This document shows, one piece after another, positions 40,095-62,228 of a stretch of DNA of 64,000 bases (within the stretch, counting starts at the first letter, position 1; every line of letters starts with the position of its first letter). Both the position numbers and the translations under genes were made by a program. This stretch comes from Chitinophaga pinensis (lineage in GTDB: Bacteria > Bacteroidota > Bacteroidia > NS11-12g > UBA9320). The notes below the pieces were generated by a model. That model was not told the origin of the DNA. It saw only the letters and a program-made list of their open reading frames with translations, and made no database searches. The DNA is taken from positions 577 through 64,576 of the forward strand of contig CAMDSC010000012.1 of NCBI GenBank assembly GCA_945907065.1, given 5' to 3'.

Positions 40095-43000
40095 TTATCT
40101 TAACACTGTAAGAATCATATTTTTTACAAATAATCTTGGATATCCACCTGTTGTTTTTCTATAGCTAATGGTCATTGGATAAACACCATCTGGAACAATT
40201 GTATCTCCTGATTTTCCATTCCATCCTTTATTTGGATCCCCCTTATAAATTATTTCACCCCAACGATTGTAAACCACAAGTTCGACCCATTCAAGTACTT
40301 GCCCCATAGGTTTCCATACATCATTTATATTATCGCCATTAGGTGAAAAAACACTCGGAAAATGCAATTGACATCCTAATTCATCTATGGTAATATTTAC
40401 AGTAGCTGTATCTGCACCGCATCTATTTTCAGCTATTACCCCATATAATCCCGGAGTTTTAATTTTTCGGGTTGGTAAATTATAACCATCAAGCCAAGTA
40501 AATGTGGTATTATCCGCATAAAAACTAAAATCGTAACTAAGGTTAGGACTTTCACAGAAAACAGAATCTGTAAATCCAAAATCAACTACTGGAGGTATTG
40601 AAAAATAAACCCATATTGAATCGCCTTTTGTACAATTACCATTGGATGCCTTAACCCAATACAAAGTCTTTGGTTGGTTAGGCGCACTTATTGAAGGAGT
40701 GCTTGCTCCGGTATTCCAAGTATATGATAAAGCAGCTGCAGACGATGCATCTAAAGTGGGTGAAACCCCATTACATACATCAATATCTGCACCCAAATTA
40801 ACAATTGGAGTGGCTTGATAAATAATTACTACTGTGTCTTTTTTGAAACAAGTTCCATCCGAAATTATTCCTACAAACGAACCACCCGGATTATTTACTG
40901 TATATTTAGCAGTTGTGGCCAACTGAGCTCCAATAAGGGTTTCCCATTCATAAACGGTGGCATTGGTAGCTGTAATATCCAAAGACCATGTAGCATTATC
41001 ACACAATTGCATATCAGCACCCAATGAAGGAATAAATAATTCAGGACGGTAGGTTACTTTAATACTATCACGACTCTTACAAATACCATCATCTCCTTCT
41101 ACCCAATGAATACCTCCAGCAGGTGTTGCGTTTTTGCGAATGCCGGGGGCAGTAGCATTATCCCACCACTTATAGGACTTAAACGCATATTTAGCCACAT
41201 TCAAATCAATGGTTTGATTTACACATAAGATAGTATCTCGACCCAAATTTATTTTTACAGGACTTTGGAATGTTACATTTATTGTATCCGAAGTTTTACA
41301 AACTTTCTTTGGTAAATCACGAAGGTCAACATAATATTTACCGGTTGTAGTAATTGGATAACTATAATTAACCGTGCTACCCATCCAAGTATATTCCACA
41401 TTATTAAGGGTTGAAGATATGGCATTAAATGTAATACCATTGCAAAGTGTAGTATCATTTCCTAGCGTAAACGCCGGAATACTGTATGTCTTTATATCGA
41501 TGGTATCACTCACTTCACAGGTACCGTTGGACACAGTAACCCATTGCTTTCCTGCGGTAGTGGCCTTATAAGTACTAAGCGTAGAATTATCTTTCCATTT
41601 CCAAGTTTTGGTGCCTGCAAGGGCTGCATTTACTAAATAAAAGCCACCTGCACAAAAGGAAGTATCTTTACCTAAACTGAAAGATGCTTTGGATTGGAAC
41701 GTTACATTTACCGTATCGCGAGTACTATAGCACATGGTATCTTTTATCCTTGCCCAATAGAGTCCGGTAGCTTTCACTTTTAATATTGAATCGGTGGTTA
41801 AACCTTTCCATAAATAGGATTTTGAAGTGGTAGTTTTTGCACTCAACGTAACACTGTCACCTAAGCAAAGTAATGTATCCTTTCCAATATTTAAAGTAGG
41901 TATTGCCCTTGTTGCTACGACTACAGTATCATAAGTGTAACATCCAGGTTTATTTTCTGCTCGGACCCATATAGTACCCGATTTTTTGGCATAAGCCGTA
42001 GCCGTGGTATCACCCAAACTCCAAAGGTATTTTTCACCTTTAGAAGCAGTTAACATCACACTATCTCCTGCACAAAACAAAGTATCATTTCCCAATTTAA
42101 ATTTAGGATATTGAATTACATCTACATAAAAGGAATCAGTGCCAGTGCAGCCTCCTACCTTTGCAGCTAACCAATGCCATCCTTTTTTATTGGCAATATA
42201 GGCCGGCACTGTAGAATTGTCATTCCACAGATAGGTGGCATTTGTAATATTCACAACTTTTACGGCTTCTCCCCCTTGGCATATTACAGTATCATTTCCT
42301 AAATCTACTTTTGGGTTAGGAAAAATAGTCAACAGCTTTCGTGCTGTATCTGCATAGCAATCTGGGCTAGCTGTTTTTCTATAAAATTGAACAAAAACAC
42401 TGTAGGTTTTAGCACTTGAAAAGGTATGATACACCACAAAACCTTTTGCTTTATTTTTGACTCCCGTGCTTGGATCTCCAAAATTCCAAACTGCAGAATC
42501 GACTCCGGCTGAGTCAGTAGCAAATAATTTGGTTGACGCCTTTTCACATAAATTGGCTGCATTGCTACCAAAATCAAATTCAGATTTATTAAAAAACGAA
42601 TTTATAAATGTAGGAATGCCCCATTGAGCATATCTGCCTGACCCAAGATCAACGGAGTTCAAAACAAAACTGCACGCCGTTCCTGTACAATTTGGCTTTT
42701 CAATACAAGATAGATATTGAGATCCAGAACCTAAGCGTCCCCTTGTAAGGTAAATTTTACCATCTAAAGCAAGCTGCATTCCCCCACCTGAATTAGTGGT
42801 AAAAGAATTTACAACTTTTATACAACTTGCGCCAATTGCATTAGCATTACCTGCTAACATATCCAATTGCCATAACCCATCGCCACCATCGCTTCCTCCA
42901 ACAATATATGAGGGCAAATAAAAACTAATATAAAGATAACGTGCATTCGGTGAAAGCTCCATTCCATACAAGCTACTGATATTACCAACTCCTGATTTGA

Positions 43001-43826
43001 TATTTGTTTTATCTATAACCTGAGGATTGGATAACTTACCAGTCAAATTATCGAAATCATATATTTCTATCCTACCAGAATTTCCATAATATTGATTACC
43101 CCCGTTTTGTTGGCCGGCAATTAGAGCTATTAACTTGGTACCATCCGGGGTAAACTTCATATACCCTTTTCCATACCCCCTAGCTCCTCCTCCTGTGCAA
43201 GCCCAAGTAGGACCTACTGCTGAAATAACAGGGGAACCAAGTCCGGTTGCATTCAACTTATAAGCATAAAATTTATTATCATCTCCAGTGTGGGATAGCA
43301 CCCAAGTATCCACCTTATTGGCATGCTTGATAGCGCATACCTTTTCGGCAGCTAAATTATTGGTAGTGGCTTTGCTAAGTAAAGGCACATTTTTAGTCAC
43401 CACTTGGCCCATTCCACCATTCAAAGAAGTATCTACAATTGAATATTGAAAACCATCGTTTCCCCATTCAGCGTCAGCTGTAAAAATCCAATACCTATTT
43501 GATCGCACCGGTTGCTGAACAATAATAGCACTTTGAGTGGAATTAACATCACCCTTTAAGCCTGTGCCATTCGACATACCGCCATGTGCCTTGGTCCACA
43601 CATTAACACCATTGGTATAAAAAAGCAACCTGCCTTTAGAGTCAGATATTGATGCTACACCATCTAGGGAGTTCATCACACCATTGGATTGTGCCACAGG
43701 TGCATTCGCTGTTCCATTAAAAGCAACACCTGCTTTATTTCCAAAATACCACCATGTGGCTTCCTTTTGGGCAAATGAATTAAGAGTTAAAATTGAAAAA
43801 AGTAGGAGTAAATAAGACCTTTTCAT
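40095..43826 (-). CDS. T9SS type B (gliding-motility-associated CTD) surface protein: beta-propeller-like N-terminus, PKD domain, tandem Ig-like repeats
   Basis: WYFG N-terminus, WNFGDP PKD, repeated LGxDTxxCxG units, C-terminal PSVFSPNGDNIND..YNRWGE..WNG..PDGVY. Confidence 0.88.
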   Translation of the reverse strand: MKRSYLLLLFSILTLNSFAQKEATWWYFGNKAGVAFNGTANAPVAQSNGVMNSLDGVASISDSKGRLLFYTNGVNVWTKAHGGMSNGTGLKGDVNSTQSAIIVQQPVRSNRYWIFTADAEWGNDGFQYSIVDTSLNGGMGQVVTKNVPLLSKATTNNLAAEKVCAIKHANKVDTWVLSHTGDDNKFYAYKLNATGLGSPVISAVGPTWACTGGGARGYGKGYMKFTPDGTKLIALIAGQQNGGNQYYGNSGRIEIYDFDNLTGKLSNPQVIDKTNIKSGVGNISSLYGMELSPNARYLYISFYLPSYIVGGSDGGDGLWQLDMLAGNANAIGASCIKVVNSFTTNSGGGMQLALDGKIYLTRGRLGSGSQYLSCIEKPNCTGTACSFVLNSVDLGSGRYAQWGIPTFINSFFNKSEFDFGSNAANLCEKASTKLFATDSAGVDSAVWNFGDPSTGVKNKAKGFVVYHTFSSAKTYSVFVQFYRKTASPDCYADTARKLLTIFPNPKVDLGNDTVICQGGEAVKVVNITNATYLWNDNSTVPAYIANKKGWHWLAAKVGGCTGTDSFYVDVIQYPKFKLGNDTLFCAGDSVMLTASKGEKYLWSLGDTTATAYAKKSGTIWVRAENKPGCYTYDTVVVATRAIPTLNIGKDTLLCLGDSVTLSAKTTTSKSYLWKGLTTDSILKVKATGLYWARIKDTMCYSTRDTVNVTFQSKASFSLGKDTSFCAGGFYLVNAALAGTKTWKWKDNSTLSTYKATTAGKQWVTVSNGTCEVSDTIDIKTYSIPAFTLGNDTTLCNGITFNAISSTLNNVEYTWMGSTVNYSYPITTTGKYYVDLRDLPKKVCKTSDTINVTFQSPVKINLGRDTILCVNQTIDLNVAKYAFKSYKWWDNATAPGIRKNATPAGGIHWVEGDDGICKSRDSIKVTYRPELFIPSLGADMQLCDNATWSLDITATNATVYEWETLIGAQLATTAKYTVNNPGGSFVGIISDGTCFKKDTVVIIYQATPIVNLGADIDVCNGVSPTLDASSAAALSYTWNTGASTPSISAPNQPKTLYWVKASNGNCTKGDSIWVYFSIPPVVDFGFTDSVFCESPNLSYDFSFYADNTTFTWLDGYNLPTRKIKTPGLYGVIAENRCGADTATVNITIDELGCQLHFPSVFSPNGDNINDVWKPMGQVLEWVELVVYNRWGEIIYKGDPNKGWNGKSGDTIVPDGVYPMTISYRKTTGGYPRLFVKNMILTVLR

Positions 43827-45904: not shown

Positions 45905-46411
45905 ATGGCACTAAACGCTTATTTAAAACTCAAAGGACAAAAACAGGGCGACATTAAAGGCTCGGTTACTCAAAAAGGTAGAGAAAACAAAATCATGGTA
46001 ATTGCAGTTAGTCATGAGGTGGTTTCACCAAGAGATATGGCTTCAGGATTACCTTCAGGCAAACGACAACACAAACCGTTTGTAATTACAAAAGAATTGG
46101 ATAAATCCAGCCCATTGCTTTATAAAGCGCTATGCACTAACGAAAATATTACCGAATGGGAATTGCAGTTTTGGACTACACAAATGACAGGAGCCATTGG
46201 TGGTGCAGGGATAGAGAGACAGCATTACACTGTAAAACTTACTAATGCAAAAATTTGTGATATAAAGTTTAGCATGCTAAATAATAAAAATCCTGATTTG
46301 ATGAGGTATGCCGAATATGAAGAGATAGCTTTTACTTATCAAAAAATAAGCTGGACAATTTTGGATGGTGGAATTACTGCTCAAGATGACTGGGAAGCAC
46401 CGATTGTTTAA
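45905..46411 (+). CDS. hcp: Hcp1-family type VI secretion tube protein (orphan)
   Basis: AYLKLKGQKQGDI, PRD..SGLPSGKRQHKPF..TKELDKSSPLL, HYTVKL.NA, EEIAFTYQKISW; own TATATTTG promoter at 45863-45870. Confidence 0.92.
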   Translation: MALNAYLKLKGQKQGDIKGSVTQKGRENKIMVIAVSHEVVSPRDMASGLPSGKRQHKPFVITKELDKSSPLLYKALCTNENITEWELQFWTTQMTGAIGGAGIERQHYTVKLTNAKICDIKFSMLNNKNPDLMRYAEYEEIAFTYQKISWTILDGGITAQDDWEAPIV

Positions 46412-49592: not shown

Positions 49593-49647
49593 TTTTTTAC
49601 AACTTTTTAAAAACGCTTTGCTTTCGGGAATAAAAGCAACGGTATTT

Positions 49648-51567
49648 ATGAACAGATATATAATTATCTCTTTTTTGTTCTCCCTTGGTTTGCCTGCCGC
49701 AGCGCAAAAGGATTCACTATGGAAAAAAAATCTAAAGGAAATTACCATAACTACTGACCGGGTTGAATTATACACCTTAGGAAACAGAATTGATAAACCC
49801 GACAGCCTTTTACAACGTATTTTTAAATCATCACCCATAGGTTCATTACTTGATGCCTCAAGTGGTTTGGTTATTCGTAGTTACGGGCCGGGAATATTGG
49901 CCACTTCATCCCTGAGGGGAGGAAATGCCCAACAAACTGCAATGTCCTGGAACGGATTATCAATCAACAGTCCTGTAAACGGATTGAGTGATTTAAATCT
50001 TATACCTTCCTTTTTATTTGACGGGATTTCTGTTTTACCGGGATTGGCCGGTAGCTTGCAAGGAAGTGGCGCTATTGGCGGTGGAATAAATTTAAACAAT
50101 TCTGCCTTAAAAAAAGAAGGATTTTCAGCCGAGCTAATGCAAACCGCTGGAAGTTTTGGAACTTATACAGGAGGGTTTAAATTTAATTATACAAAAAAGA
50201 AATGGAGCCATTCTGTAAAAGGTTTTTATTCAAAAACCAACAATAATTATTCATTTATAAACCGTGCCGAAGCTGGAAATCCAAAAGAAAATTTGACAAA
50301 TGCCGAAGGCAAAAATTATTCGGTTTTGCATCAAACTGCCTATCAATCCGCAAAGGCCGGAATTTTTAAAATTAACTATTGGGGAACCTTCGCCAATCGC
50401 CAAATACCTCCTACCCTATTGATGGAAAATACGACAGCCCGACAACTCGACAATATTCAAAAAACAATGGTACAATGGGACAAATCGTTTAAAAAAGTAA
50501 GTTTAAAATTTCATTCTCTATTTCAAAATGATTATTTAAAATACAGTGAAAAAGAGTTAGACATCAATTCCATCTCCAAGTCTATATTTATTACCAATGA
50601 TGCTGAATTGCGATTTAAAAGCTTTAAAAATTCTACCTCAAGCATTGGTGCTGTTCATTCGTTTACCAAAGCTAATGTAGCTAATGTTTTAAATACAGGA
50701 ACTACCACCTTAAATGAATCTGAAAGAAATCAAGTGGCATTTTGGGCAAGTCATTTTCATCAGATTGTTAAACTTAGAACCAGTATTTCAGCCAGCGTGA
50801 GGCAAGAATTGGTTGATACAAAATTTTTACCTTTAATTCCTGCACTTGGGTTTAAAACCCACCTTCATAAAACCCTTGATATTTATGGTCAAACAAGCAA
50901 GGTTTACAGAATTCCAACCTTAAACGACCTGAATTGGATTCCGGGAGGAAACCCTGAATTAAAACCAGAATCTGGATGGGCCAACGAACTTAGTGCCGAG
51001 TTAAATAAAAAAAATAAACAGCTTTATTTCACAACTTCTGTCACCGGATATAGCCGCCTTATTACCAATTGGATTCAGTGGCAACCGGTATCTTCGCAAA
51101 TTTGGAGTCCCATAAATATTGGTAAAGTAAACAGCCGTGGGCTGGAACTAAGAAGTACTCTAAAGATTAGTATTACCAATAAAATTTATAGCAAAACAGG
51201 TCTCAATTTTGATTATACCAAATCCGAAAATGTGGATGCCACTAACCCAAACTACAAAAAGCAGTTGCTCTATATCCCCTATTTTAAATCCTCAGGCTTT
51301 ATTGCCTTTGGGATAAAAAATACAGTTTTGCTCTTACAAGGAGTTTGGGTTGGTAAACGGTATACCGGTTCTGACAATTTAGATTCAATACCGCACTACG
51401 GCTTAATAAATTTAGCATTGAATCATAACTTAAACTTAAAAAAAACGAATGGCAATGCATTTTTAAGAGTTAATAATATTTTAAATAAAAGCTATGAAGC
51501 CATTGTTTGGCGGCCAATGCCGAGTATTAATTTTGAATTTGGAATAAATATATGTTTTAACAACTGA
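49648..51567 (+). CDS. btuB: TonB-dependent cobalamin receptor BtuB-like
   Basis: IRSYGPGILATSSLRGG..WNG..INS plug, GSGAIGG, YRIPTLNDLNW..GNPELKPE; directly under a B12 riboswitch. Confidence 0.8.
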   Translation: MNRYIIISFLFSLGLPAAAQKDSLWKKNLKEITITTDRVELYTLGNRIDKPDSLLQRIFKSSPIGSLLDASSGLVIRSYGPGILATSSLRGGNAQQTAMSWNGLSINSPVNGLSDLNLIPSFLFDGISVLPGLAGSLQGSGAIGGGINLNNSALKKEGFSAELMQTAGSFGTYTGGFKFNYTKKKWSHSVKGFYSKTNNNYSFINRAEAGNPKENLTNAEGKNYSVLHQTAYQSAKAGIFKINYWGTFANRQIPPTLLMENTTARQLDNIQKTMVQWDKSFKKVSLKFHSLFQNDYLKYSEKELDINSISKSIFITNDAELRFKSFKNSTSSIGAVHSFTKANVANVLNTGTTTLNESERNQVAFWASHFHQIVKLRTSISASVRQELVDTKFLPLIPALGFKTHLHKTLDIYGQTSKVYRIPTLNDLNWIPGGNPELKPESGWANELSAELNKKNKQLYFTTSVTGYSRLITNWIQWQPVSSQIWSPINIGKVNSRGLELRSTLKISITNKIYSKTGLNFDYTKSENVDATNPNYKKQLLYIPYFKSSGFIAFGIKNTVLLLQGVWVGKRYTGSDNLDSIPHYGLINLALNHNLNLKKTNGNAFLRVNNILNKSYEAIVWRPMPSINFEFGINICFNN

Positions 51568-51589
51568 TTAAACTGATTGATTTGATATA

Positions 51590-52582
51590 ATGATTTTAGA
51601 TAAAAAAATATATTTAGTATTTACCCTTTCATTTCTCTTTTGGGGAATGAAAGGATTTTCACAATATGCTCCTGCAGCAGGAAAGTTAGGAAGTTCGGCA
51701 CTTTTTAAAGATTCATCCATTTTTGTAAATTGGGCCAAGCAATGCACTATTTACAGAGGGTGGAAAAACATTGCTCAAAAAGATTCAGGTTATGCCACCA
51801 TTGGCGATAGCACTTCAGCAACTGGCAAAGCAGGAGAAAACGGAATAGTGAGCTTGGGAGATAGCGGTATTGCAATTTGTCAATTTTACAAACCTTTAAT
51901 AAATGGTGATGGATGGGATTTTGCTGTATTTGAAAACACTTTTGACGACCGCTATTTAGAACTTGCCTTTGTGGAGGTGAGTTCTGACGGGTGGAGATAC
52001 TTTAAGTTTCCATGCCATTCTTTAACCGACACGTTAAATCAAACTGGAGCCTTCGGCTATACCGAACCTGAAAATATTAATAACCTTGCTGGGAAATATA
52101 GGGCGGGATATGGAACACCATTTGACATCGGCGACATTCCCGATTACAAAGACTTAAATAAAAACAATATACGGTTTGTAAAAATTTTAGATATTGTGGG
52201 AAGTTTAAACTCAAAATTTGCAAGCTTAGATACAGCCATGCGAAAAATAAATGACCCATGGCCTACCCCATTTACATCCAGTGGCTTTGATTTGGATGCC
52301 ATTGGAGTTATTCATGAACAAGCCACCTCGGAGATTATTTCAATTAATTCGAATCAATTTATTATAGGCCCTAATCCTATTAAAGAATCTCAAAAATTAA
52401 GAATTGATAATTCTGAAAATCTAATTTCAACTATAAAAATTTTTGATACCGTTGGTAAATTATATAAAGAAATAAGTATTTCATCCCCACTAATTGAGAC
52501 CACTGATTTGCCATCCGGATTATTTTTTATTCATTTTTCAGGAACATCTATTACCAGCATTTATAAAGGTTTAAAATTATGA
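51590..52582 (+). CDS. Putative BtuH-like cobalamin-binding protein with T9SS type A sorting domain
   Basis: VSLGDSG..F...NGDGWDFAVFEN..ELAFVEVSSDG..FDI..IRFVKI.D..SGFDLDA; C-terminal IGPNP..KIFD..G..LPSGLFFI. Confidence 0.55.
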   Translation: MILDKKIYLVFTLSFLFWGMKGFSQYAPAAGKLGSSALFKDSSIFVNWAKQCTIYRGWKNIAQKDSGYATIGDSTSATGKAGENGIVSLGDSGIAICQFYKPLINGDGWDFAVFENTFDDRYLELAFVEVSSDGWRYFKFPCHSLTDTLNQTGAFGYTEPENINNLAGKYRAGYGTPFDIGDIPDYKDLNKNNIRFVKILDIVGSLNSKFASLDTAMRKINDPWPTPFTSSGFDLDAIGVIHEQATSEIISINSNQFIIGPNPIKESQKLRIDNSENLISTIKIFDTVGKLYKEISISSPLIETTDLPSGLFFIHFSGTSITSIYKGLKL

Positions 52583-53640
52583 GAAAAAAAATAATCTCTA
52601 CAAAATTTTATATTCTCATTGCCCTCAGTGCCTCCGTGTTAATTTTATATAGTTGCAAAGATGAGCCACCCAAAACACATCCAACCCAATTAGGTCAAGG
52701 GAAAGGTTTGTTTGTTTCTAACGAAGGTACTTTTGGAATGGGCAACGCTTCGTTAACGTATATTAATCTTGAAAACGATTCACTAAACACAGATGTAGAC
52801 CTATTTAAAACCAGTAACAACCGTTCTTTAGGTGATGTTTTTCAAAGCATGAGTTTGATAAATAAATATGCTTGGTTGGTGGTAAATAATTCAGGAAAAA
52901 TTGAAGTAATAAATCCGGAAACCTCCAAATCCGTTGCTACTATCAAAAATCTTAAATCCCCACGCTATGCCTTGGAAGTGCAACCCGGAAAAGTGTATGT
53001 TTCTGACCTTTACTCCAATTCTATAAGCATAGTTGATGCTAATTCCTTTACCAAAACCAGAGAAATTAAATGCAAAGGCTGGACAGAAGAAATGATTTTA
53101 TTTCAAAACAAAGTATGGGTAACCAATCATAACAGCGATTATCTTTACATTATTAATCCATCCACCGACATTATTACTGACAGCATTGCTCTGGCTTATG
53201 GTGGCTCAAGTTTAGTATCTGATAAGGATGGAAAAATTTGGGTTTTATGTTCGGGCGATTTGATAAAAAAACGTACCGGAGGACTTTTTTGCATTAATCC
53301 TACTACCCTAAAAATTGAAAAACAATGGCAATTTGCTAAAGATGATTACAACCCTGTAAAGCTGAAACAAAACCCAGCTAATGATAGTTTGTATTTTATT
53401 AATCAAGGAATTTTTGGGTTTCCAAAAACGGCAGCTAATCTCCCTGTCAATCCTATAATATCGCAACCTTCAGGCACATCATTTTATGGACTAACCATTC
53501 AATTATCTACAGGAAATCTTTTTGTATCGGATGCTATAGATTTTGTAAGCCGTGGTAAAGTTTCCGTCTATTCACCTAAAGGTATTTTCATTAAGTCTTA
53601 TAAAACCGGAGTCGTTCCGGGGGAGTTTTTGTGGTGGTAA
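52579..53640 (+). CDS. btuG: BtuG-like (YncE-family) beta-propeller lipoprotein
   Basis: Lipobox ILYSC; NEGTFGMGNASL, LGDVFQSM, VVNNSGKIEV, SPRY, FYGL, DAIDF. Confidence 0.8.
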   Translation: MRKKIISTKFYILIALSASVLILYSCKDEPPKTHPTQLGQGKGLFVSNEGTFGMGNASLTYINLENDSLNTDVDLFKTSNNRSLGDVFQSMSLINKYAWLVVNNSGKIEVINPETSKSVATIKNLKSPRYALEVQPGKVYVSDLYSNSISIVDANSFTKTREIKCKGWTEEMILFQNKVWVTNHNSDYLYIINPSTDIITDSIALAYGGSSLVSDKDGKIWVLCSGDLIKKRTGGLFCINPTTLKIEKQWQFAKDDYNPVKLKQNPANDSLYFINQGIFGFPKTAANLPVNPIISQPSGTSFYGLTIQLSTGNLFVSDAIDFVSRGKVSVYSPKGIFIKSYKTGVVPGEFLWW

Positions 53641-53703: not shown

Positions 53704-56700
53704 CTATTTTATCTTAAAATCGAAGCAGCCTATAATTTCACATTCCTTACAATTTGCATCTCTAAATGTAAACTTCACACAAATCTTTCCTTTTAGTTCG
53801 CAACAGTCAATAGCTGGTTTTGGGGGTAATATAAAGGTCATTCCAATATTGGTAATATTTGGAGCATTTAAATTACTTCCGTTATTCCAAATTACTTCTC
53901 TTGGATTTTGATAAACTCCAGTGCTGCTTCCATTAAATGAAGGAACCGTTGTGCCACCATACATTGTAATTTTAGGAGGAGCCGCATTTATATTTAAAGC
54001 TGAAGCCACACTTGCCCACGTAAAAGGAAGATTAACACATTGCATACATTCCTTTTTGTAATTATCATCAATGGTATAGCTTACCACATTAGCTCTCACC
54101 TCGGTAATATTAACTGTAGCCGGTATAGATATCGAGAAATTGTTACTAACTAAAGTTGAATTTATCCCTGCAGTATAGGTTGGATTTTTAGGGTTTACTT
54201 TAATTTCATAAGGGCAGCAAGAACTACTGTCGCAATTCGTTTTAAATTTGATAACACAACTGTCACAGATCTTATCACCGCACCATCCATAAAGTGTTAA
54301 AATATAAACACCAGGCAAACTTGGAACAAAGTTAAGTTGCAAATTACCGGTAGTTATTCCTCCACTTGGTGGTTGTAGTTTATATTTCACAACCCCGTTG
54401 CATGTGGAATCGGCACATTTATACTTGCCATTTATTAAATAGGTTTGATTGCATGCTACATCATATGTTTTTTTGCATTCTAGTTTTTTAGAATTCCCCA
54501 CTCCAATATTTGCTTTCATATCAGGATTGTCGGTTTTATTCATGGTTATTTCACCCCAACTGCTGCCTTTACAACTGCAATTACAGTTTTTTATAAATAA
54601 ATCATACTTGCCTGATTTTGCAGCACAGCTATCGGTAAGATAAGTTACCTGAATTGTGATTTGGTGTTGACCTAAAGACAAACCTGTAAGGCTTAAAAAA
54701 GGGCCTGTTGAATGGTAATTTCCATCTACAAACCATCTAATATTATACACTCCGTTGTATGTTTGTCCGGGGCCTAAAGGTAGAGGAGGAATTATTTTAG
54801 CGGTATCGCATAAAGTATCGCAACCAATAGGAAACAAAGCCAAATAGGGACGTTTTTTAATAGTAACCATATTACTTGTACCAAAACATCCACTTATTGG
54901 ATCAACAACTGTTACATAATAGTTTCCTGCCTGTGCCGTGGTCATAGTTTGCCCGCTAGCACCATTACTCCATTGATAAATATAATTAGGATTGGTAGGA
55001 GTAGCTGTTGCGGTATAGGTATGATTTATTCCTTCACATAAATAACCAGTTGGGGCTATAGTTACTGATGGACTTAAATATAAATAAACACAGAAAGTAT
55101 CTTTAGCTACACAGCCCGTTGTAATATCTGTTACTGTTAAAATAAACTGATAAGTTCCCAATTGTGTAACTGCTGCACTCGCATAAAATTGAAGATTATC
55201 CGGACTAAAAGTTACACTTCCTGGTCCTGTGCAAGTCCAGTTATAGGTGTAATTTGGATTATTTCCACCGGTATTTTGCACACTTATAGTCCATGGCGAA
55301 CTTCCACTCGCACATTGAACGGTTTGCCCCTGAATATCAGCCAAAGGTTTTGGTAAATAAATAACCATTACAGTATCTGATTTTACAGGACAACCATTGT
55401 TATTACTAATGGCTGTTACTGTATAATTCCCCGATGCATTAAAATTGCATAACTGATAGGTTGAATTAGTTGCTCCGCTAATTGCAGCCCCATTTTGATA
55501 CCATTGAAAACCTGTAAAACTAGCAGCAGGATTGGTATTTAAAGTAAGTGGTGGTAGGCAATCAGGGCAAATTTTTACTATTGGTGAAGGAGTAATAGTT
55601 AATGCCGTTGGAATTAATACAGTAATAGGCTTTGAAGTAGTAAAAATACATCCATACCGATCCTTTATAGTTAATGAAATGGTAGGATTAATTGGTGTTC
55701 CATTATAGGCATGAGTTATAGGATTGGTAACACCAGTTGTGGCGTCACCAAAATTCCATGCATATGAAATCACTCCTGCGGTATAGCTGCTGTTAAAAAC
55801 TGTTTGAGCATCTTTACACACATTGGGTCCTCCAAGTATAGAAAATGTAGTTGTTGGAAAATTAAATGTAAACGATTTGGTAAGAGTACAACCATTTTTA
55901 GAGATGGTAAGTGTAATTGTAGGATTACAACCAAATGGAACGGTTAATATTGGGTTAGGTATGTTTGTAGCACTTAAAGAACCACAGGTAGTTGACCAAG
56001 TAATCGAATATCCTGCATAAGCAGCCAAAAATCTGGAAGCATCCTGCAATTGAATACTCCAAGCATTTACACCACAACTTATCACACTTGTAAATGAATC
56101 TACCATTGGCACAGTAACAATAACTGTATCACAATGTTTAGTTCCATTGCTGCAGGTCATTACTGCATAAACTTGATAAGCTCCGGCATCAGCATAAAGA
56201 TGATTACCGGTTGGGCCACTAAAGCCATCTCCGTAATACCACGCTGTTGAAACAGGAGTACATCCGGCAGGAATATTTGTGGTTAAAGAAACTGGATTTG
56301 GGCAATTGCTTGTGCTTATTACTAAATCAGGAATACAACCCGGTGCAGGCACACAAGGACTTACAACTATCACATTAGATACATCAGTGCATCCATTGCT
56401 GCAACTCACTGTTACAAAATAACTACCTGGTAAATTTGTGGTCATTGTTGGGCCGGTAGCTCCATTGCTCCATAAAAATGTAGCTCCTGGGCAATTTGCA
56501 GGTATGGGGGCTTGCATAGTTACCGAACCACCATTACATATATTTCCAATTGCAGAAATGGTAGCTATTACTGGGGTTATACCCGTTACAATAATTTGAT
56601 TTGTTGCAATACAAGGGCCTGGATAAGTGGCTTGTAACACATAGGTTCCATTTTGGGTAACCGTAAATGGGCTTCCTGAACCAACAGGACTTCCATTTAA

Positions 56701-58740
56701 AAACCAATTGTAGGTTCCTCCGCTTGGTGCGGCAGTTAAAGTTGCTGAACAAGCACCATTAACTTTTGTAATAGTAACGGTTGCTGCTGTAGCTGTTAAA
56801 TTTATAGAACTGCTTCCACCACAACTTGTAATTGTAAGAGTAGCATTGCTGTTAATTGTAAAAGTGGCTGAATTAGTTCCTTGACCTCCTGTAAGCACAG
56901 CTCCAGGTGTAGCACTCCACACATATCCTCCTGGAGGAATGGCTCCTGCCACAGTTGCTGTAATAGTTCCACCGCTGCAAGTGCTAGCACCCGGTGAAAG
57001 TGTAATCGCAGGTGGTGCAGGTACTTTTGTTATAGAAAGCGTTTTTGTTCCTGTACAACCTGCCACAGTTTGTGAAGCCTGCAAAGTCCAAGGGCCAGCA
57101 CCTGTAAACAAGACAGATGCTAATGAATTATTGGCTCCATAAGGCGCTATATTTCCTGTACCTGCAGTAAAACTCCAAGCAAAATTTCCTCCTGCAACAT
57201 TACTACTTACAGAATAGGCATATAATTGATTTGGGCAAATAATAATATTACCAACTATTGGATTTAAAATAGGAGTTGGATTTACTATTACATTTAGCAA
57301 ATCGGAAGGTGTGCAATAGTTTGCAGCATTAATTGGAACTGCATAAATGTTATAGCTTCCAGCTACATTCCAAGTAAGAGAAATACTTGAAACACTTGAA
57401 AATGTTCCTGCAGGAATACCTGGAGGCGTATAACCTGAAGTTGGGGTAATATTCCAGTTAGCATTGCCACCACCATTCACAAAATAGGATGATGTAGAAT
57501 TTGTGCAAACTGGTGAAAGTCCTGAAATTTGAAATTTAGGTTTTATATAAATTTTTATTGTGCTAGAGCCACTGCATCCGCTATATGGATTTTTATAATT
57601 ACAAACTAAATAATAAGGACCTCCTGGTGAAGAATTCCAAGTAACATTTATTATATTATGATTGCTATCTACCCCGGCAATTGTCCCTCCTCCGCTTAAT
57701 GTCCATTTATAAAATGTACCCGGCAAGGCTGGCAAAGAATAAGAAGTTGTAGAACTTGGACATACCGGTGTAGGTCCTTGAATTGGCAAATTCGGATAAA
57801 GTACAGGAACATTAATAGTAGATGAGTTACCACAAGTATTTGGGCAAGTAGCATTTAGGGTTACAGTTGTGGGATAAGTACTTGGCATATTCCAAACCAC
57901 CTTTACACATGTTGTACCTTGTCCACTGACTATTGTTCCGCCATTCACTACCCAATTTAATCCTGTGCATCCAACTGTACTGGTACAATATTTTATTGTA
58001 TCTCCCGGGCATAGCATCTTTCGGCAATCATCTGTATGAATATCAATTCCTTTTTTAGTGCCTACAGTAATTTTTACCATAGCTGTATCCTTACAACCAC
58101 ATTCTACAAGTTCGCCTTTGCTATTTAGAATAAGATTAAAAACTGTTAAAATAACTATTTTTACACCACTTGTAGCATAAATATGTGGAGGTGGATTTTG
58201 AACATTATCAAAAGTACCATCCCCAAAATCCCAATAATATCCGGATGCGCCAATGGATGTTGCTCCGCTAAAATTCACAGGAGTTAAGGCACAAACAGGG
58301 TTAGGATTAAAAGTGATTCCGGCGGTTGGGCCATCTACCAAACATACAGTCATTCGTATTGTATCTCTACATTTTCCATCAGCACTTGAAACAATTACTT
58401 GAATAAAGCCTTGAGAATTGTTTCCCCAAGTTATTATTCCAGGATTAGCTGGAGTAACCGCTATAGAACCACCAACAACTGTCCAGCTATATGTAAATCC
58501 TGTAAGGTTGGGAACTACTAAATAACTTTGTTGTTGATTTTTACAAGCTATCAATATTCTACCGGGACTGCCAGCTCCTCCATCAGGATTGGCATGAATT
58601 TGTTTGCATGCGTAATCATCACATGGACGAATAGCGTTTGATACCAATTCAAATTTTGGACAACAGCCAGCTGGCTGATTCTGAGCATTTGTATTTACAA
58701 AAGACAACAGTAATATCAGGATAAATAATAAGTTCTTCAT
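53704..58740 (-). CDS. Giant Cys-rich PKD/Ig-repeat secreted protein (adhesin-like) with unassigned Cys-rich C-terminal domain
   Basis: Sec signal; PKD motifs YYWDFGDG, WYYGDG, YAWNFGD; many Ig-like repeats; no T9SS CTD; ends CCELKGKICVKFTFRDANCKECEIIGCFDFKIK. Confidence 0.75.
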   Translation of the reverse strand: MKNLLFILILLLSFVNTNAQNQPAGCCPKFELVSNAIRPCDDYACKQIHANPDGGAGSPGRILIACKNQQQSYLVVPNLTGFTYSWTVVGGSIAVTPANPGIITWGNNSQGFIQVIVSSADGKCRDTIRMTVCLVDGPTAGITFNPNPVCALTPVNFSGATSIGASGYYWDFGDGTFDNVQNPPPHIYATSGVKIVILTVFNLILNSKGELVECGCKDTAMVKITVGTKKGIDIHTDDCRKMLCPGDTIKYCTSTVGCTGLNWVVNGGTIVSGQGTTCVKVVWNMPSTYPTTVTLNATCPNTCGNSSTINVPVLYPNLPIQGPTPVCPSSTTSYSLPALPGTFYKWTLSGGGTIAGVDSNHNIINVTWNSSPGGPYYLVCNYKNPYSGCSGSSTIKIYIKPKFQISGLSPVCTNSTSSYFVNGGGNANWNITPTSGYTPPGIPAGTFSSVSSISLTWNVAGSYNIYAVPINAANYCTPSDLLNVIVNPTPILNPIVGNIIICPNQLYAYSVSSNVAGGNFAWSFTAGTGNIAPYGANNSLASVLFTGAGPWTLQASQTVAGCTGTKTLSITKVPAPPAITLSPGASTCSGGTITATVAGAIPPGGYVWSATPGAVLTGGQGTNSATFTINSNATLTITSCGGSSSINLTATAATVTITKVNGACSATLTAAPSGGTYNWFLNGSPVGSGSPFTVTQNGTYVLQATYPGPCIATNQIIVTGITPVIATISAIGNICNGGSVTMQAPIPANCPGATFLWSNGATGPTMTTNLPGSYFVTVSCSNGCTDVSNVIVVSPCVPAPGCIPDLVISTSNCPNPVSLTTNIPAGCTPVSTAWYYGDGFSGPTGNHLYADAGAYQVYAVMTCSNGTKHCDTVIVTVPMVDSFTSVISCGVNAWSIQLQDASRFLAAYAGYSITWSTTCGSLSATNIPNPILTVPFGCNPTITLTISKNGCTLTKSFTFNFPTTTFSILGGPNVCKDAQTVFNSSYTAGVISYAWNFGDATTGVTNPITHAYNGTPINPTISLTIKDRYGCIFTTSKPITVLIPTALTITPSPIVKICPDCLPPLTLNTNPAASFTGFQWYQNGAAISGATNSTYQLCNFNASGNYTVTAISNNNGCPVKSDTVMVIYLPKPLADIQGQTVQCASGSSPWTISVQNTGGNNPNYTYNWTCTGPGSVTFSPDNLQFYASAAVTQLGTYQFILTVTDITTGCVAKDTFCVYLYLSPSVTIAPTGYLCEGINHTYTATATPTNPNYIYQWSNGASGQTMTTAQAGNYYVTVVDPISGCFGTSNMVTIKKRPYLALFPIGCDTLCDTAKIIPPLPLGPGQTYNGVYNIRWFVDGNYHSTGPFLSLTGLSLGQHQITIQVTYLTDSCAAKSGKYDLFIKNCNCSCKGSSWGEITMNKTDNPDMKANIGVGNSKKLECKKTYDVACNQTYLINGKYKCADSTCNGVVKYKLQPPSGGITTGNLQLNFVPSLPGVYILTLYGWCGDKICDSCVIKFKTNCDSSSCCPYEIKVNPKNPTYTAGINSTLVSNNFSISIPATVNITEVRANVVSYTIDDNYKKECMQCVNLPFTWASVASALNINAAPPKITMYGGTTVPSFNGSSTGVYQNPREVIWNNGSNLNAPNITNIGMTFILPPKPAIDCCELKGKICVKFTFRDANCKECEIIGCFDFKIK

Positions 58741-58745
58741 AATAA

Positions 58746-60362
58746 CTATTTTATGTTTTTATTTAATGGATCATGATCTATCTGGTCATTACAACCCTCT
58801 TTTTTCTTTTCATAACAAACTAATTTGTTACAAGTAGTACAATCGGTAAATTCAATTTTGTATCGAATACACCACCTGAATACTGCACTGCAACACGGAG
58901 TTAGTTGAGGCGTGGTAATATTAATATTTAATGGTGGTGGGTTGTTGCCAGTATTCCAAGCAAGGCTGTTAGTGCCATTTGTAAAATGACCATATGTAGC
59001 TGCATCCTTATTGCAAGGTATACAAAAATTATTTTCAGGAGTCATTTCAAAATAAACCAGTTCGGCCTTAATATTTTTAATGGTTTTAGGCGGGGCTGTG
59101 GTAATTGAAACTGATTGAGAATAAGAAAGTATATTGTTCGTATAATTTATTTGAGCTGGAGCATTTGCTGTTAATGTAAAATGTTTATCATCACAATCTG
59201 CACATCGGCAGGGTTTAACCGTGTCACACAAATAATCTTCGGCATTTTTGTTCGGGTCACCTTGTTTTTGTATTCTTGTTTTTATACAAATATAACTTAG
59301 TGAGCTACTGGCAGTGATGGTTCCGCTTACGAGGAGTATACCACCCGATGCCGCGATGGATACTACTGGGTTCGGCACTGTGCTGGCAATAGTGGCACCT
59401 CCCGGAGTACTTGTGGTTATGCTGATATTTGTAAATTCAGCCACAGTGTTATTCAGATTCGTAATTATATACGAATAGGTGTAAAGACCTGGAGTAGATG
59501 TACATTTTACTTTTAATGAATCTAGTTGAATGATATATTGAGTTTGCATACTAAATGCAAAAGGTTGAGCAAACCCAAGTCCATCCACTAATTTCCGCCC
59601 CTGATCATCTAAAGGAGTAACTGTCCAAACATAATTTTTACCCATTTCAGGCATTGCAAATTCTACCGGCCATTGGGTTTGAAGTACTCCTTTCAAATCT
59701 TTTTCAACAATGGGTTGGTTGCTTCGTAAGGCTGTCATACTATTTTGCCCTTCCAATACCTCCCATACCTGCAGGCGATATGTAACTATTGTTGAAGGTG
59801 CTGGAGTAACCGGTGTCCACCTAAAAACTATTCCTTTCATCCCCGATTCAGAAATAGCTTCTTTGTCTTTAGGATTAACAAGCGTTGGAGCCTGATAAGC
59901 CATAATGCTAAAAGTTTTACAAACTGTTCCTGAAGTTCCAACCGGGGCACCAGTCACAGGATCTATAAGGGCGACACAAATTCTATAATTATCATCCGGT
60001 ATTCGGCCTGTGGTTATTGCAGATTTCTCTAAATTACCTTTATAATTTACCACATTGGATGGAATTATATCCTCTGGATTATAAGTTGAACTACCAGGAG
60101 GAACCGTTAATACTGGCATTTTTGCCGCATCAGTATTTGCTACCAATGTTCCTTTACCATCAAATAGTTCTGTTTTTATTTTCACTTGAATATCCTTTGT
60201 ACTCGAGTTAATTATTAAAAGTTTAACTGTTTCAGTTCGTTGCTGCCAATCGGATATATAAGGCGATGGTTTTGGACTCATCAGCAACTGAATGTTTTGA
60301 GCCTTGAGACCACCCGCTGACAAGAAGATTAGAACTACAAGTAATTTAAATTTTTTATACAT
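58746..60362 (-). CDS. Secreted TANFOR-like / FN3-like protein with the same Cys-rich C-terminal domain
   Basis: PSPYISDW..GRIPDDNYRICV N-domain; PTLVNP..IVFRWTP..YRLQVWE..GKNYVWTV second domain; C-terminal CCSAVFRWCIRYKIEFTDCTTCNKLVC. Confidence 0.6.
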   Translation of the reverse strand: MYKKFKLLVVLIFLSAGGLKAQNIQLLMSPKPSPYISDWQQRTETVKLLIINSSTKDIQVKIKTELFDGKGTLVANTDAAKMPVLTVPPGSSTYNPEDIIPSNVVNYKGNLEKSAITTGRIPDDNYRICVALIDPVTGAPVGTSGTVCKTFSIMAYQAPTLVNPKDKEAISESGMKGIVFRWTPVTPAPSTIVTYRLQVWEVLEGQNSMTALRSNQPIVEKDLKGVLQTQWPVEFAMPEMGKNYVWTVTPLDDQGRKLVDGLGFAQPFAFSMQTQYIIQLDSLKVKCTSTPGLYTYSYIITNLNNTVAEFTNISITTSTPGGATIASTVPNPVVSIAASGGILLVSGTITASSSLSYICIKTRIQKQGDPNKNAEDYLCDTVKPCRCADCDDKHFTLTANAPAQINYTNNILSYSQSVSITTAPPKTIKNIKAELVYFEMTPENNFCIPCNKDAATYGHFTNGTNSLAWNTGNNPPPLNINITTPQLTPCCSAVFRWCIRYKIEFTDCTTCNKLVCYEKKKEGCNDQIDHDPLNKNIK

Positions 60363-60366
60363 AATG

Positions 60367-62103
60367 TTATAATTTATAGGTTATGGAAGTTCTTAAAAGA
60401 TTTTCACGATAGGATATTCCAGGACGGCTATCGCCAAATTCAAAAAGATTAATTGAGCCGTTTAATGAAAACGATACTTTCTTTTTCACAGTGAGTTTCA
60501 CTCCAATTAAGGTCATTATTTGTGAGCCGAATGAAGTGGCACCTAAAGTATTCTCAGCATAAGTAAGACCTAAAGTTGTGCTTAGTTTTTTCTTAAATAA
60601 TTTATATCCAACACCCACATTTACGGCTTTGGTCATTAATTTTCCATAAGAAGTATTATTATCAAAATAGCTAATTAAAGTAGTTGCTGAAAAAGGCGAT
60701 TTTAACATAGAAAGCATATACGAAAATGCTCCATTGCTGGCATCGTTATTATTTACAGCACCCGTTATTGTATTAAAATCATTGAAAACATTTTGAGCAT
60801 ACATAAGTGTAAAATTATGCATACTTGATTTGGTTATAAAATTATACGATGGACTGACACTCCAAGATTCCGTCACCATTTCAACTCTAAATGTGTCATT
60901 CAATACTGAGTTTCTAAACCCAAAGTTGGAATAAGAGCCTGCCAGAGACAAATTATCTGTTAACTGTAAATTGAGGTTGGCGGAACCTATAGTTTGGGTT
61001 GTGGTTGTTGCTCGGATACCTGAAAGATTATTCACTCGTCGTCCAATAGAACCAGAAAGCTGAACCTTGTTTTTAAATAACATAAATCGCGGGTCAATGG
61101 TTGCCTCCAATCGGTCGGTTTGTAAAAAAGGATAACCCAATGGTACAAAACCATCGCCGTAGTAACGACCTGTTAATTTTAATCCGAAGTTTTTTCCATC
61201 TCTTCCTATAGATAATACCGATGCATAATCCAATCGGCTGGATTCTTTGGGTATAAAAACAGTTTTTGGTGGCGATAGTGAAAAAGATGGCAACTCATTG
61301 GAACGCATATCTCTTGTAAAAGCAGAACCAGCAACCTCTCCTTTTATATAAGTTTTTTTACTTAATTTAATCCTAAAATCAATTGAACTTAAAATACCTG
61401 TTTGGGGCATAACATTTATTGGTTTAGTAACCAAAGATGCTGTGTCATCTTGCATCATACTGGCAATTATGTATAGATGGGAAGAATCTTCATAGCCAAA
61501 TCCAATTTTGGCTGAATGGATTTTTCGAGCATAAATACCTTGGATATTTTTAGTTGTATCCTGCTTTACCGCCATTTGTGATGTACCTGAAAAAACTGAG
61601 AGTCTAAATTTACCCGGAGTTAAATTTAATCCTGCCCCATATACCGCCAAATCGCCAACACTCAATTCAGAATATTGAGGAATTTGAGAACCCAATAAAA
61701 CTTGGCACCATTTATATTTTGGAGCAATACCAATGCGGTTTAACGGATTTTTTACAAGTTCTTTAAAATTCAAGTAGGGAGCATTTGGTATTTTAGGAAC
61801 ACTGGGAAGTATAACCCCAAATTGTCCTGTTGGTAAAGCCATTGATATTGGCATTGAAAAATCTTTAATATTTATTGAAACATTTACAACTAATCTACCC
61901 AAAGCATCAGGCCTACGAGGAGCTACAGCCCCTAATGTATCCGAATTCATGTGATAAAAATCACCATAAACTCCCATATCTCCTGAAATATTTATTGGTT
62001 TATTTTTTTGTTGGCCAAAAGTAAATTGAGAGAATAAAGTAACTAAGTACAGTAAAAAGATTAACCTTTTTGGCAACAATAATATAAGTTGTAGATTAAT
62101 CAT
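60367..62103 (-). CDS. Outer-membrane beta-barrel protein of unknown function
   Basis: Signal peptide; NRIGIAPKYKW..YSELS..GAGLNLTPGKF motif; alternating strands; terminal TSITYKL; TATATTTG promoter 9 nt before ATG 62103. Confidence 0.72.
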   Translation of the reverse strand: MINLQLILLLPKRLIFLLYLVTLFSQFTFGQQKNKPINISGDMGVYGDFYHMNSDTLGAVAPRRPDALGRLVVNVSINIKDFSMPISMALPTGQFGVILPSVPKIPNAPYLNFKELVKNPLNRIGIAPKYKWCQVLLGSQIPQYSELSVGDLAVYGAGLNLTPGKFRLSVFSGTSQMAVKQDTTKNIQGIYARKIHSAKIGFGYEDSSHLYIIASMMQDDTASLVTKPINVMPQTGILSSIDFRIKLSKKTYIKGEVAGSAFTRDMRSNELPSFSLSPPKTVFIPKESSRLDYASVLSIGRDGKNFGLKLTGRYYGDGFVPLGYPFLQTDRLEATIDPRFMLFKNKVQLSGSIGRRVNNLSGIRATTTTQTIGSANLNLQLTDNLSLAGSYSNFGFRNSVLNDTFRVEMVTESWSVSPSYNFITKSSMHNFTLMYAQNVFNDFNTITGAVNNNDASNGAFSYMLSMLKSPFSATTLISYFDNNTSYGKLMTKAVNVGVGYKLFKKKLSTTLGLTYAENTLGATSFGSQIMTLIGVKLTVKKKVSFSLNGSINLFEFGDSRPGISYRENLLRTSITYKL

Positions 62104-62228
62104 AGGGTTACACAAATATAATTTTATTAAATACATTTCAAAATTTTGTTGGTTTTATTAAGGTCTTTTTAATCTTTTATATTCTCACTTTTATTAACCC
62201 GTCATTAAAACTTATCTTTGCCCACGTC

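Follow-up and report, generated by a model that had tools for sequence, protein, structure and literature searches.

The described systems closest to the locus reported here are the TANFOR proteins, type IX secretion system (T9SS) cargo of type B, and the cohesin-dockerin pairs. PMC10202324 and PMC9143113 describe T9SS type B cargo as held by PorP/SprF barrels, with the uncleaved C-terminal domain proposed as its anchor. TANFOR proteins are presented by Jana, Salomon and Bosis (2020; PMC7073777) as polymorphic toxins of the Bacteroidetes for which T9SS export was proposed, together with the suggestion that they may have a binding partner encoded by a separate gene downstream. A term search returned no use of the word barrel in the main text of that paper, and 11 of the 14 Chitinophaga and Tannerella rows considered from its supplement show an unannotated upstream protein of 548-593 amino acids (aa), a candidate by size for the barrel described below. 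Here we analyse a 64,000-nucleotide stretch of DNA assigned to Chitinophaga pinensis (hereafter the window; positions 577 to 64,576 of contig CAMDSC010000012.1), from a genome with Bacteroidota as its closest named relatives, and describe a three-gene locus in which two proteins end in a shared ten-cysteine domain. The locus works like the TANFOR, type B cargo and cohesin-dockerin systems and is a member of none; it holds an undescribed domain family that probably works as a plug-and-socket pair in a TANFOR-type cassette.

The three genes lie head to tail on the minus strand in the order P0003, P0002, P0001, with gaps of 4 and 5 bases. The first, P0003 (60367..62136), encodes a predicted outer-membrane barrel of 589 aa and ~26 strands, without a plug domain. 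P0002 (58746..60362, 538 aa) is the likely adaptor, with a signal peptide followed by TANFOR-like, FN3-like, middle and type B ten-cysteine domains. The passenger P0001 (53704..58740, 1678 aa) contains a signal peptide, PKD/Ig-like repeats, 78 cysteines and a type A ten-cysteine domain at its C-terminus.

Like TANFOR proteins, P0002 has a Sec signal (by heuristic), an FN3-like domain next to its N-terminal domain and PKD neighbours, and its first 275 aa are homologous to them, aligning by profile at 99.8% with giant proteins that match TIGR02542 below cut-off. Unlike them, P0002 itself gave no match to TIGR02542, its homology being established by profile comparison with these sub-cut-off relatives. 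Neither P0001 nor P0002 matched a toxin family in Pfam or NCBIfam, the gene downstream of P0001 is a convergent DUF5074 propeller gene and is not immunity-like, and the window passenger would be coupled in trans through the paired domain. As with T9SS type B cargo, the passenger gene is clustered with its own outer-membrane barrel, and OmpA-C-like neighbours are present in some loci. The differences are that the window domain comprises ~170 aa with ten cysteines, that its predicted partner is a paralogous domain and not a barrel, and that the window barrel has 589 aa and ~26 strands. The models PF13585/TIGR04131 and PF18962/TIGR04183 match other window proteins and gave no match in P0001 or P0002, and no T9SS sorting tail was found in P0001 by the Pfam and NCBIfam scan. 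With cohesin-dockerin systems the locus would share the use of a small module pair to clip interchangeable passengers to an anchored scaffold, and cohesins are among the fold matches of its predicted beta-sandwich, at scores that common arrangements also reach. Dockerins are helical and calcium-binding, whereas both window partners share one fold, are cysteine-rich and belong to a Gram-negative bacterium; the Pfam cohesin and dockerin models gave no match in P0001, P0002 or 29 type B and related segments.

Both proteins end in a homologous ten-cysteine domain, the type A copy forming residues 1506-1678 of P0001 (53707..54225, minus strand) and the type B copy residues 385-524 of P0002 (58791..59210, minus strand). 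The initial annotation had correctly placed the two minus-strand open reading frames and had aligned their C-termini by eye, through quoted motif pairs that are all present in the translations. The cysteine spacing it gave as identical in both, CC-x6-C-x9-C-x2-C-x4-C, is exact and was found in exactly two of the 7884 stop-to-stop segments of the genome, namely P0001 and P0002; these six cysteines are only part of the set, as the domain actually holds ten that are conserved. Direct comparison of the two sequences gives weak evidence when taken alone (pairwise BLASTP E = 0.009; phmmer across the genome E = 0.87), and a hidden Markov model (HMM) built from the close P0002 family reaches P0001 at E = 0.15 only. 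The local alignment score of the two domains was 78 versus a shuffle mean of 34, with none of 2000 shuffles scoring as high. The shared domain becomes firm once profiles of relatives are used: an HMM from 146 P0001-type segments reaches P0002 at E = 7.3e-11 in the genome search and matches 113 of 120 P0002-family proteins. Furthermore, profile-profile comparison of the two versions gave a probability of 99.35% (E = 6.6e-21), the second alignment also including some single and tandem copies. Outside the domain no significant likeness was found (next BLASTP segment E = 0.014), in keeping with the description of the proteins as otherwise unrelated, and pattern and HMM searches of the genome returned no copies beyond these two.

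A search of 1.84 billion representatives at a cut-off of E<=0.001 gave 239 clusters matching the domain, of which the best 150 were analysed. Among the 149 of these with a domain call, the domain lies within 50 aa of the C-terminus in 112, 51-200 aa from it in 25 and deeper inside in 12; the position is mostly C-terminal, as had been predicted, and not always terminal. Signal peptides had been anticipated too, and a simple heuristic detected a signal-like N-terminus in 94 of 125 domain proteins (restricted to those starting with Met and of at least 380 aa) versus 6 of 625 interior windows. The expected variety of N-termini was borne out by many unrelated passengers: a Pfam scan of 99 of the 150 relatives found PKD, RCC1, NHL, SprB, SdrD_B, DUF11, FG-GAP, IgGFc-binding, PA14 and TSP1 domains. 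A T9SS type A tail was present in 3 of the 99 and no T9SS tail in the other 96. Immediately N-terminal to the domain, 71 of the 150 relatives carry a cysteine-rich module of ~125 aa, which in P0001 (residues 1379-1505; 54226..54606, minus strand) directly precedes the type A copy. Tails without Pfam or NCBIfam match follow the domain in L033:5452-9549, P0229 and P0230; by eye we take the motif at their ends to resemble T9SS type B signals. A class-wide search with alignment A9 was set aside, as it mostly matched unrelated N-terminal repeats.

The domain had not been recognised in the initial annotation, and Pfam, NCBIfam, PDB sequences and the ESM Atlas returned no known family, including no Pfam family of unrelated function; such a blank shows neither novelty nor absence. 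In the literature covered, which is that outside subscription papers and bioRxiv supplements, neither the domain nor the pair nor the barrel was found to be described. An AlphaFold2 model of the A domain predicts a complete all-beta sandwich (predicted local distance difference test, pLDDT, 93.9). Fold searches identified no clear relative, the best matches being not clearly above background. YcnI ranked at the top (Z 9.1, root-mean-square deviation (rmsd) 3.2, 119 residues aligned), and the cohesins (Z 8.1-8.2, rmsd 3.5-3.7, ~126 aligned) score at a level that common arrangements also reach; the neighbours further include pilins and staphylococcal adhesin domains, with no clear winner. Across 160 sequences, Cys149 and Cys167 (A domain numbering) are lost together in 14 of 16 losses, and this co-loss alone suggests that the two form a disulfide. 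The domain cysteines may alternatively bind metal, though the co-loss of Cys149 and Cys167 behaves like that of a disulfide pair.

The domain exists in two subtypes, type A ending variable adhesin-like passengers and type B ending the adaptor. Labels were set by gene position, with L081 relabelled from the tree and a stray copy in L093 excluded. Each of the 47 thinned sequences (47 of 47) has its nearest neighbour within its own subtype; identity is 19% between A-B partners, 27% for A-A and 29% for B-B, and a quick tree largely separates the first genes from the second genes. The 56 non-duplicate genome loci comprise 41 adjacent two-gene pairs, 1 locus with two proteins of two copies each, 8 loci cut upstream by a contig end and 6 singles. 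A further 75 metagenome loci were found through type A: in 42 the B gene is directly upstream of the A gene, in 30 the A gene lies at or within ~520 bases of the contig start, 2 represent a broken locus without a B gene and 1 has no domain call. The order is B-then-A in 42 of the 44 metagenome loci in which the upstream gene is in view. In 40 pairs the A passengers fall into 8 BLAST clusters, two of them very short. Three-gene loci of the order A-B-A were observed (L081, L112 and L117), and two copies are present in one chain in six proteins, plus two more in one locus. Five scanned proteins with a single internal copy carry a T9SS type A tail; single internal copies may homodimerise or serve another use.

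A degraded version of the locus (L138 and L140) has a 142-aa barrel fragment, two reversed open reading frames, a shortened A gene and no B gene. Elsewhere, the pair follows a histidine kinase with a LytTR regulator (L038:920-4593) or a sigma-70 region 2 gene accompanied by a TPR gene (L031:4566-6009); neither set is found beside the window locus.

Prediction of a complex between the window A and B domains gave a score of 0.92, versus 0.00 for the best of 3 controls; the mark applied, which 116 of 157 solved complexes but just 2 of 215 mismatched pairs attained, is only roughly valid with our own alignments. The runs agree in at least 77% of contacts, with a partner pLDDT of at least 85 and 115 contacts, the closest of which have Tyr437 of P0002 wrapped by A domain residues 87-89 and 105-110. 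The interface involves 44 and 41 positions on the two partners and, because 25 of these are alignment-equivalent, the predicted dimer is pseudo-symmetric. Conservation of the interface versus the rest is 0.44 vs 0.36 and 0.43 vs 0.36. Sequence and fold searches found no like complex in the PDB. Among the 40 pairs, 5 (one clade) have lost one cysteine of the middle CxxC on both sides and 1 has lost one cysteine of the CC on both sides, with no case of either loss in a single partner; losses of Cys149/167 are one-sided, unlike these mirrored losses. The pattern is consistent with an inter-chain disulfide that may link A and B. The model supports binding, and we consider it quite likely that the A and B domains form a dimer. 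The structure and oligomer prediction proposed at the outset returned an all-beta sandwich and an A:B heterodimer. Of the earlier suggestion of a disulfide-stabilised docking or polymerisation module, the docking part agrees with the paired genes, the two subtypes and the complex score, whereas the predicted interface speaks against polymerisation, since the faces engaged on the two partners are largely equivalent and would close the dimer.

The model of P0003 contains ~26 strands (a count of predicted elements) and no plug (pLDDT 79.7, predicted template modelling score 0.65). Its best fold match is the MtrB porin (PDB 6r2q; Z 20.4, rmsd 5.5, 458 aligned; next row 16.5), likewise a wide plug-less barrel that could sheath a partner protein, and fimbrial ushers ranked among its Foldseek matches. 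P0003 differs from both in its 11% identity, the lack of a PDB sequence match and the lack of heme or usher domains in Pfam and NCBIfam; a shared fold shows no function. Comparison with chaperone-usher systems gave no Pfam usher or chaperone match, with ushers and pilins only middling fold matches and the barrel model plug-less. In two-partner secretion, TpsB is a 16-strand Omp85 barrel with POTRA domains; this assignment was rejected, since P0003 has ~26 strands starting right after the signal peptide and no Omp85 or POTRA match.

The initial annotation had proposed that the domain might be a targeting signal for this barrel, and that the two would co-occur. A barrel match at E<=1e-30 was found in 68 of 401 Bacteroidota genomes and the ten-cysteine domain in 12 of 401 (13 rows, one of which matched only the flanking module; the profile is type A and may miss divergent copies), the two being adjacent in 4. 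Of 28 domain-bearing genomes, 9 gave no barrel match (one a single contig, one fragmented), and the barrel lies within the fetched stretch in 53 of the 75 metagenome loci. The domain does not require the large barrel. With most barrel genomes lacking the domain, and the domain also present inside proteins that have their own T9SS type A tail, a role as a direct targeting signal is not supported and the distribution of the domain does not track that of the barrel.

Weak barrel matches abound in certain families; in family f32, a match was found in 56 of the 61 genomes. A distant barrel relative of 800-920 aa, with no Pfam or NCBIfam match, is present in a conserved run of similar gene sizes (L044:4885-7638, L045:3693-6425, L046:3983-6382 and L047:4562-7042), flanked in L044 by a FecR-domain gene on one side and a CHASE2 adenylate cyclase gene on the other. 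This run is possibly an undescribed trans-envelope signalling system.

What does track the barrel is the TANFOR-like domain. In the window this corresponds to residues 22-153 of P0002 (59904..60299, minus strand), named from its profile homology to the sub-cut-off TIGR02542 proteins. It is followed by the FN3-like domain (residues 156-272; 59547..59897, minus strand), the name of which derives from PF00041 matches in relatives and from the TANFOR paper, and by the middle domain (residues 274-384; 59211..59543, minus strand). Adaptors in the loci examined have 1-3 FN3-like domains, fitting length steps of ~127 aa. Of 55 non-duplicate barrel genes, 46 have a TANFOR-like gene within 160 bases or are fused to one. 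With the TANFOR profile, matches were obtained in 0 of 5 genomes without the barrel and in 5 of 5 barrel-bearing controls, and for five TANFOR-type pairs without a barrel in the fetched stretch, the barrel was found elsewhere in the genome.

Other arrangements of the two were observed. In L034:13540-14478, L035:15197-16063 and most Chitinophagaceae-type loci, a separate TANFOR-FN3 protein of ~300 aa comes after the barrel and is a candidate for its plug or lid. A TANFOR-like domain is fused to the barrel (947 aa) in L037:15639-18479, upstream of two proteins with two domain copies each. In close relatives, second barrels are followed by up to 3 TANFOR proteins with differing C-terminal halves and no ten-cysteine domain (L013/L014 (G006:C20), L012 and L015).

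Ten pair loci have no intact large barrel next to them; in these, TANFOR is absent from the B protein, which starts instead with a predicted eight-strand outer-membrane barrel. The Atlas score was 0.97 for the one of these 10 tested, the others being assigned by alignment and strand pattern, and Pfam found nothing in the 10 N-termini. The FN3-like and middle domains that come next in these adaptors are those of the TANFOR type (97.9%; 1.6% for the reversed control). Searching PDB sequences with alignments of the barrel, of TANFOR and of the small barrel gave nothing useful. A small outer-membrane barrel thus appears to replace TANFOR in barrel-less loci. Therefore, the B protein looks like an anchor, spacer and socket in series, with TANFOR or the small barrel as the anchor, which points to the membrane side for B and the cargo side for A.

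Taken as a whole, we consider it fairly probable that the A:B docking pair couples the variable passenger P0001 to P0002 as an adaptor held at the outer membrane. The pair likely clips a swappable adhesin-like protein onto the adaptor, rather than being an export tag for the adjacent pore. Both proteins would cross the inner membrane by Sec and subsequently form disulfides. The TANFOR-like domain of the window adaptor would dock on or in the 26-strand barrel, and it is reasonably probable that the barrel holds the adaptor in this way; in barrel-less loci, the eight-strand barrel at the adaptor N-terminus would provide the anchor instead. The type A passenger would be captured by the type B adaptor and then displayed, most likely at the surface, a location we moderately favour over the periplasm. 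It may cross the outer membrane through the barrel, by riding on the T9SS (SprA of the translocon is present in the genome, TIGR04189 above cut-off), or not at all. More tentatively, and with some doubt on our part, the plug-less 26-strand barrel and TANFOR could constitute an unrecognised T9SS-independent export and display system, with the A/B pair as its universal coupler: whichever protein acquires a type A domain would be caught by the type B adaptor, possibly via an inter-chain disulfide, and displayed through the barrel.

Several observations weigh against a docking pair held by the barrel. Among barrel loci without the ten-cysteine domain, barrel-TANFOR adjacency holds in only 12 of 21, and the TANFOR profile was partly built from the same loci it was counted on. 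The topology of OmpA-type proteins places domains that follow an eight-strand barrel in the periplasm, where the B domain would then lie. Most loci are close Chitinophagaceae-type relatives, so that the locus counts are not independent; the A/B split is weakly supported in the quick tree (77), where a second-position copy, that of L093, groups with the opposite side. The mirror trees (Mantel r 0.64) and conserved gene order are expected from plain co-inheritance too, and the mirrored cysteine losses amount to two events only. The complex tool can pass close cousins of a true partner, so A:A or B:B could score equally. Finally, six loci have one internal copy, with no second copy in 5 of 5 such genomes searched, and hence an A:B partner is not always needed.

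The same A:B dimer could remain in the periplasm, at the inward-facing side of the outer membrane, and work there as a sensor or an envelope scaffold. Such a location would fit the 10 loci in which an eight-strand barrel forms the N-terminus and further domains the C-terminus, as well as the absence of a T9SS tail from both P0001 and P0002 and the OmpA-C-like genes in 7 of 56 loci. We nevertheless consider it unlikely, as the passengers bear PKD, SdrD_B, DUF11, SprB, RCC1, NHL and IgGFc-binding domains typical of surface proteins, and as single copies sit in T9SS type A cargo, indicating that the domain can be outside. In addition, TANFOR proteins elsewhere carry nuclease toxins that must exit the cell (PMC7073777).

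Quite improbable, in our estimate, is a self-associating module in which A and B are old paralogues building fibres or separate homodimers. It would account for the 25 equivalent positions of the pseudo-symmetric interface, for the existence of single-copy genomes and for the A-B-A loci L081, L112 and L117, yet not easily for B-then-A pairing with subtypes that are stable across many passengers, nor for the mirrored cysteine losses; moreover, the model is a complete sandwich (pLDDT 93.9) and the symmetric interface closes on itself. We give similarly little credence to a ligand-binding or stabilising tip domain, duplicated once, with the two proteins acting independently. The complex score (0.92 vs 0.00 for the control) and the strict gene pairing speak against it, while the fold neighbours (YcnI, cohesins, pilins and staphylococcal adhesin domains; best Z 9.1) and the single internal copies in T9SS cargo are in its favour. 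Finally, it is very unlikely that the adjacent barrel directly recognises the domain as a C-terminal signal, despite its terminal position (112 of 149), the 96 of 99 scanned proteins without a T9SS tail and the barrel found in the fetched stretch of 53 of 75 metagenome loci: 9 of 28 domain genomes, including one assembled as a single contig, gave no barrel match, the domain is beside the barrel in only 4 of the 68 of 401 genomes with a strong barrel match, and it occurs within proteins having their own T9SS tail.

The true start of P0003 is probably the ATG at 62103. A TTTG-N18-TATATTTG at 62113..62142 (minus strand) resembles the consensus of the Bacteroidota housekeeping promoter; the match is weak because 8 such matches occur on the same strand of the window. 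RNA data (4 runs, one study) matched P0001 and P0002 exactly over short stretches and the barrel nowhere, and were not used as evidence because they are contigs with uncontrolled DNA carry-over. Convergent on P0001, the plus-strand genes at 49618-53640 encode a BtuB-like TonB receptor that scored below cut-off, together with a T9SS type A protein and the DUF5074 propeller, a set resembling a cluster for vitamin B12 uptake. The gene at 40095-43826 (minus strand) encodes a 1243-aa PKD protein with a T9SS type B tail, which makes it a conventional counterpart to P0001. A lone Hcp/TssD tube gene lies at 45905-46411 on the plus strand (PF05638 and TIGR03344 above cut-off); a VipB-type sheath gave no match in the genome, a search that did not extend to Bacteroidota-type genes of the type VI secretion system.

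Docking of the passenger onto an anchored adaptor would represent a new small docking pair, by which bacteria could swap large passengers on one anchor, and such a disulfide-stabilised plug-and-socket pair could serve surface display. The widespread unannotated barrel, strongly matched in 68 of 401 genomes, is a likely partner of TANFOR domains, the export route of which was left open in 2020. If true, the barrel and TANFOR system would supply the missing exit route for TANFOR toxins.

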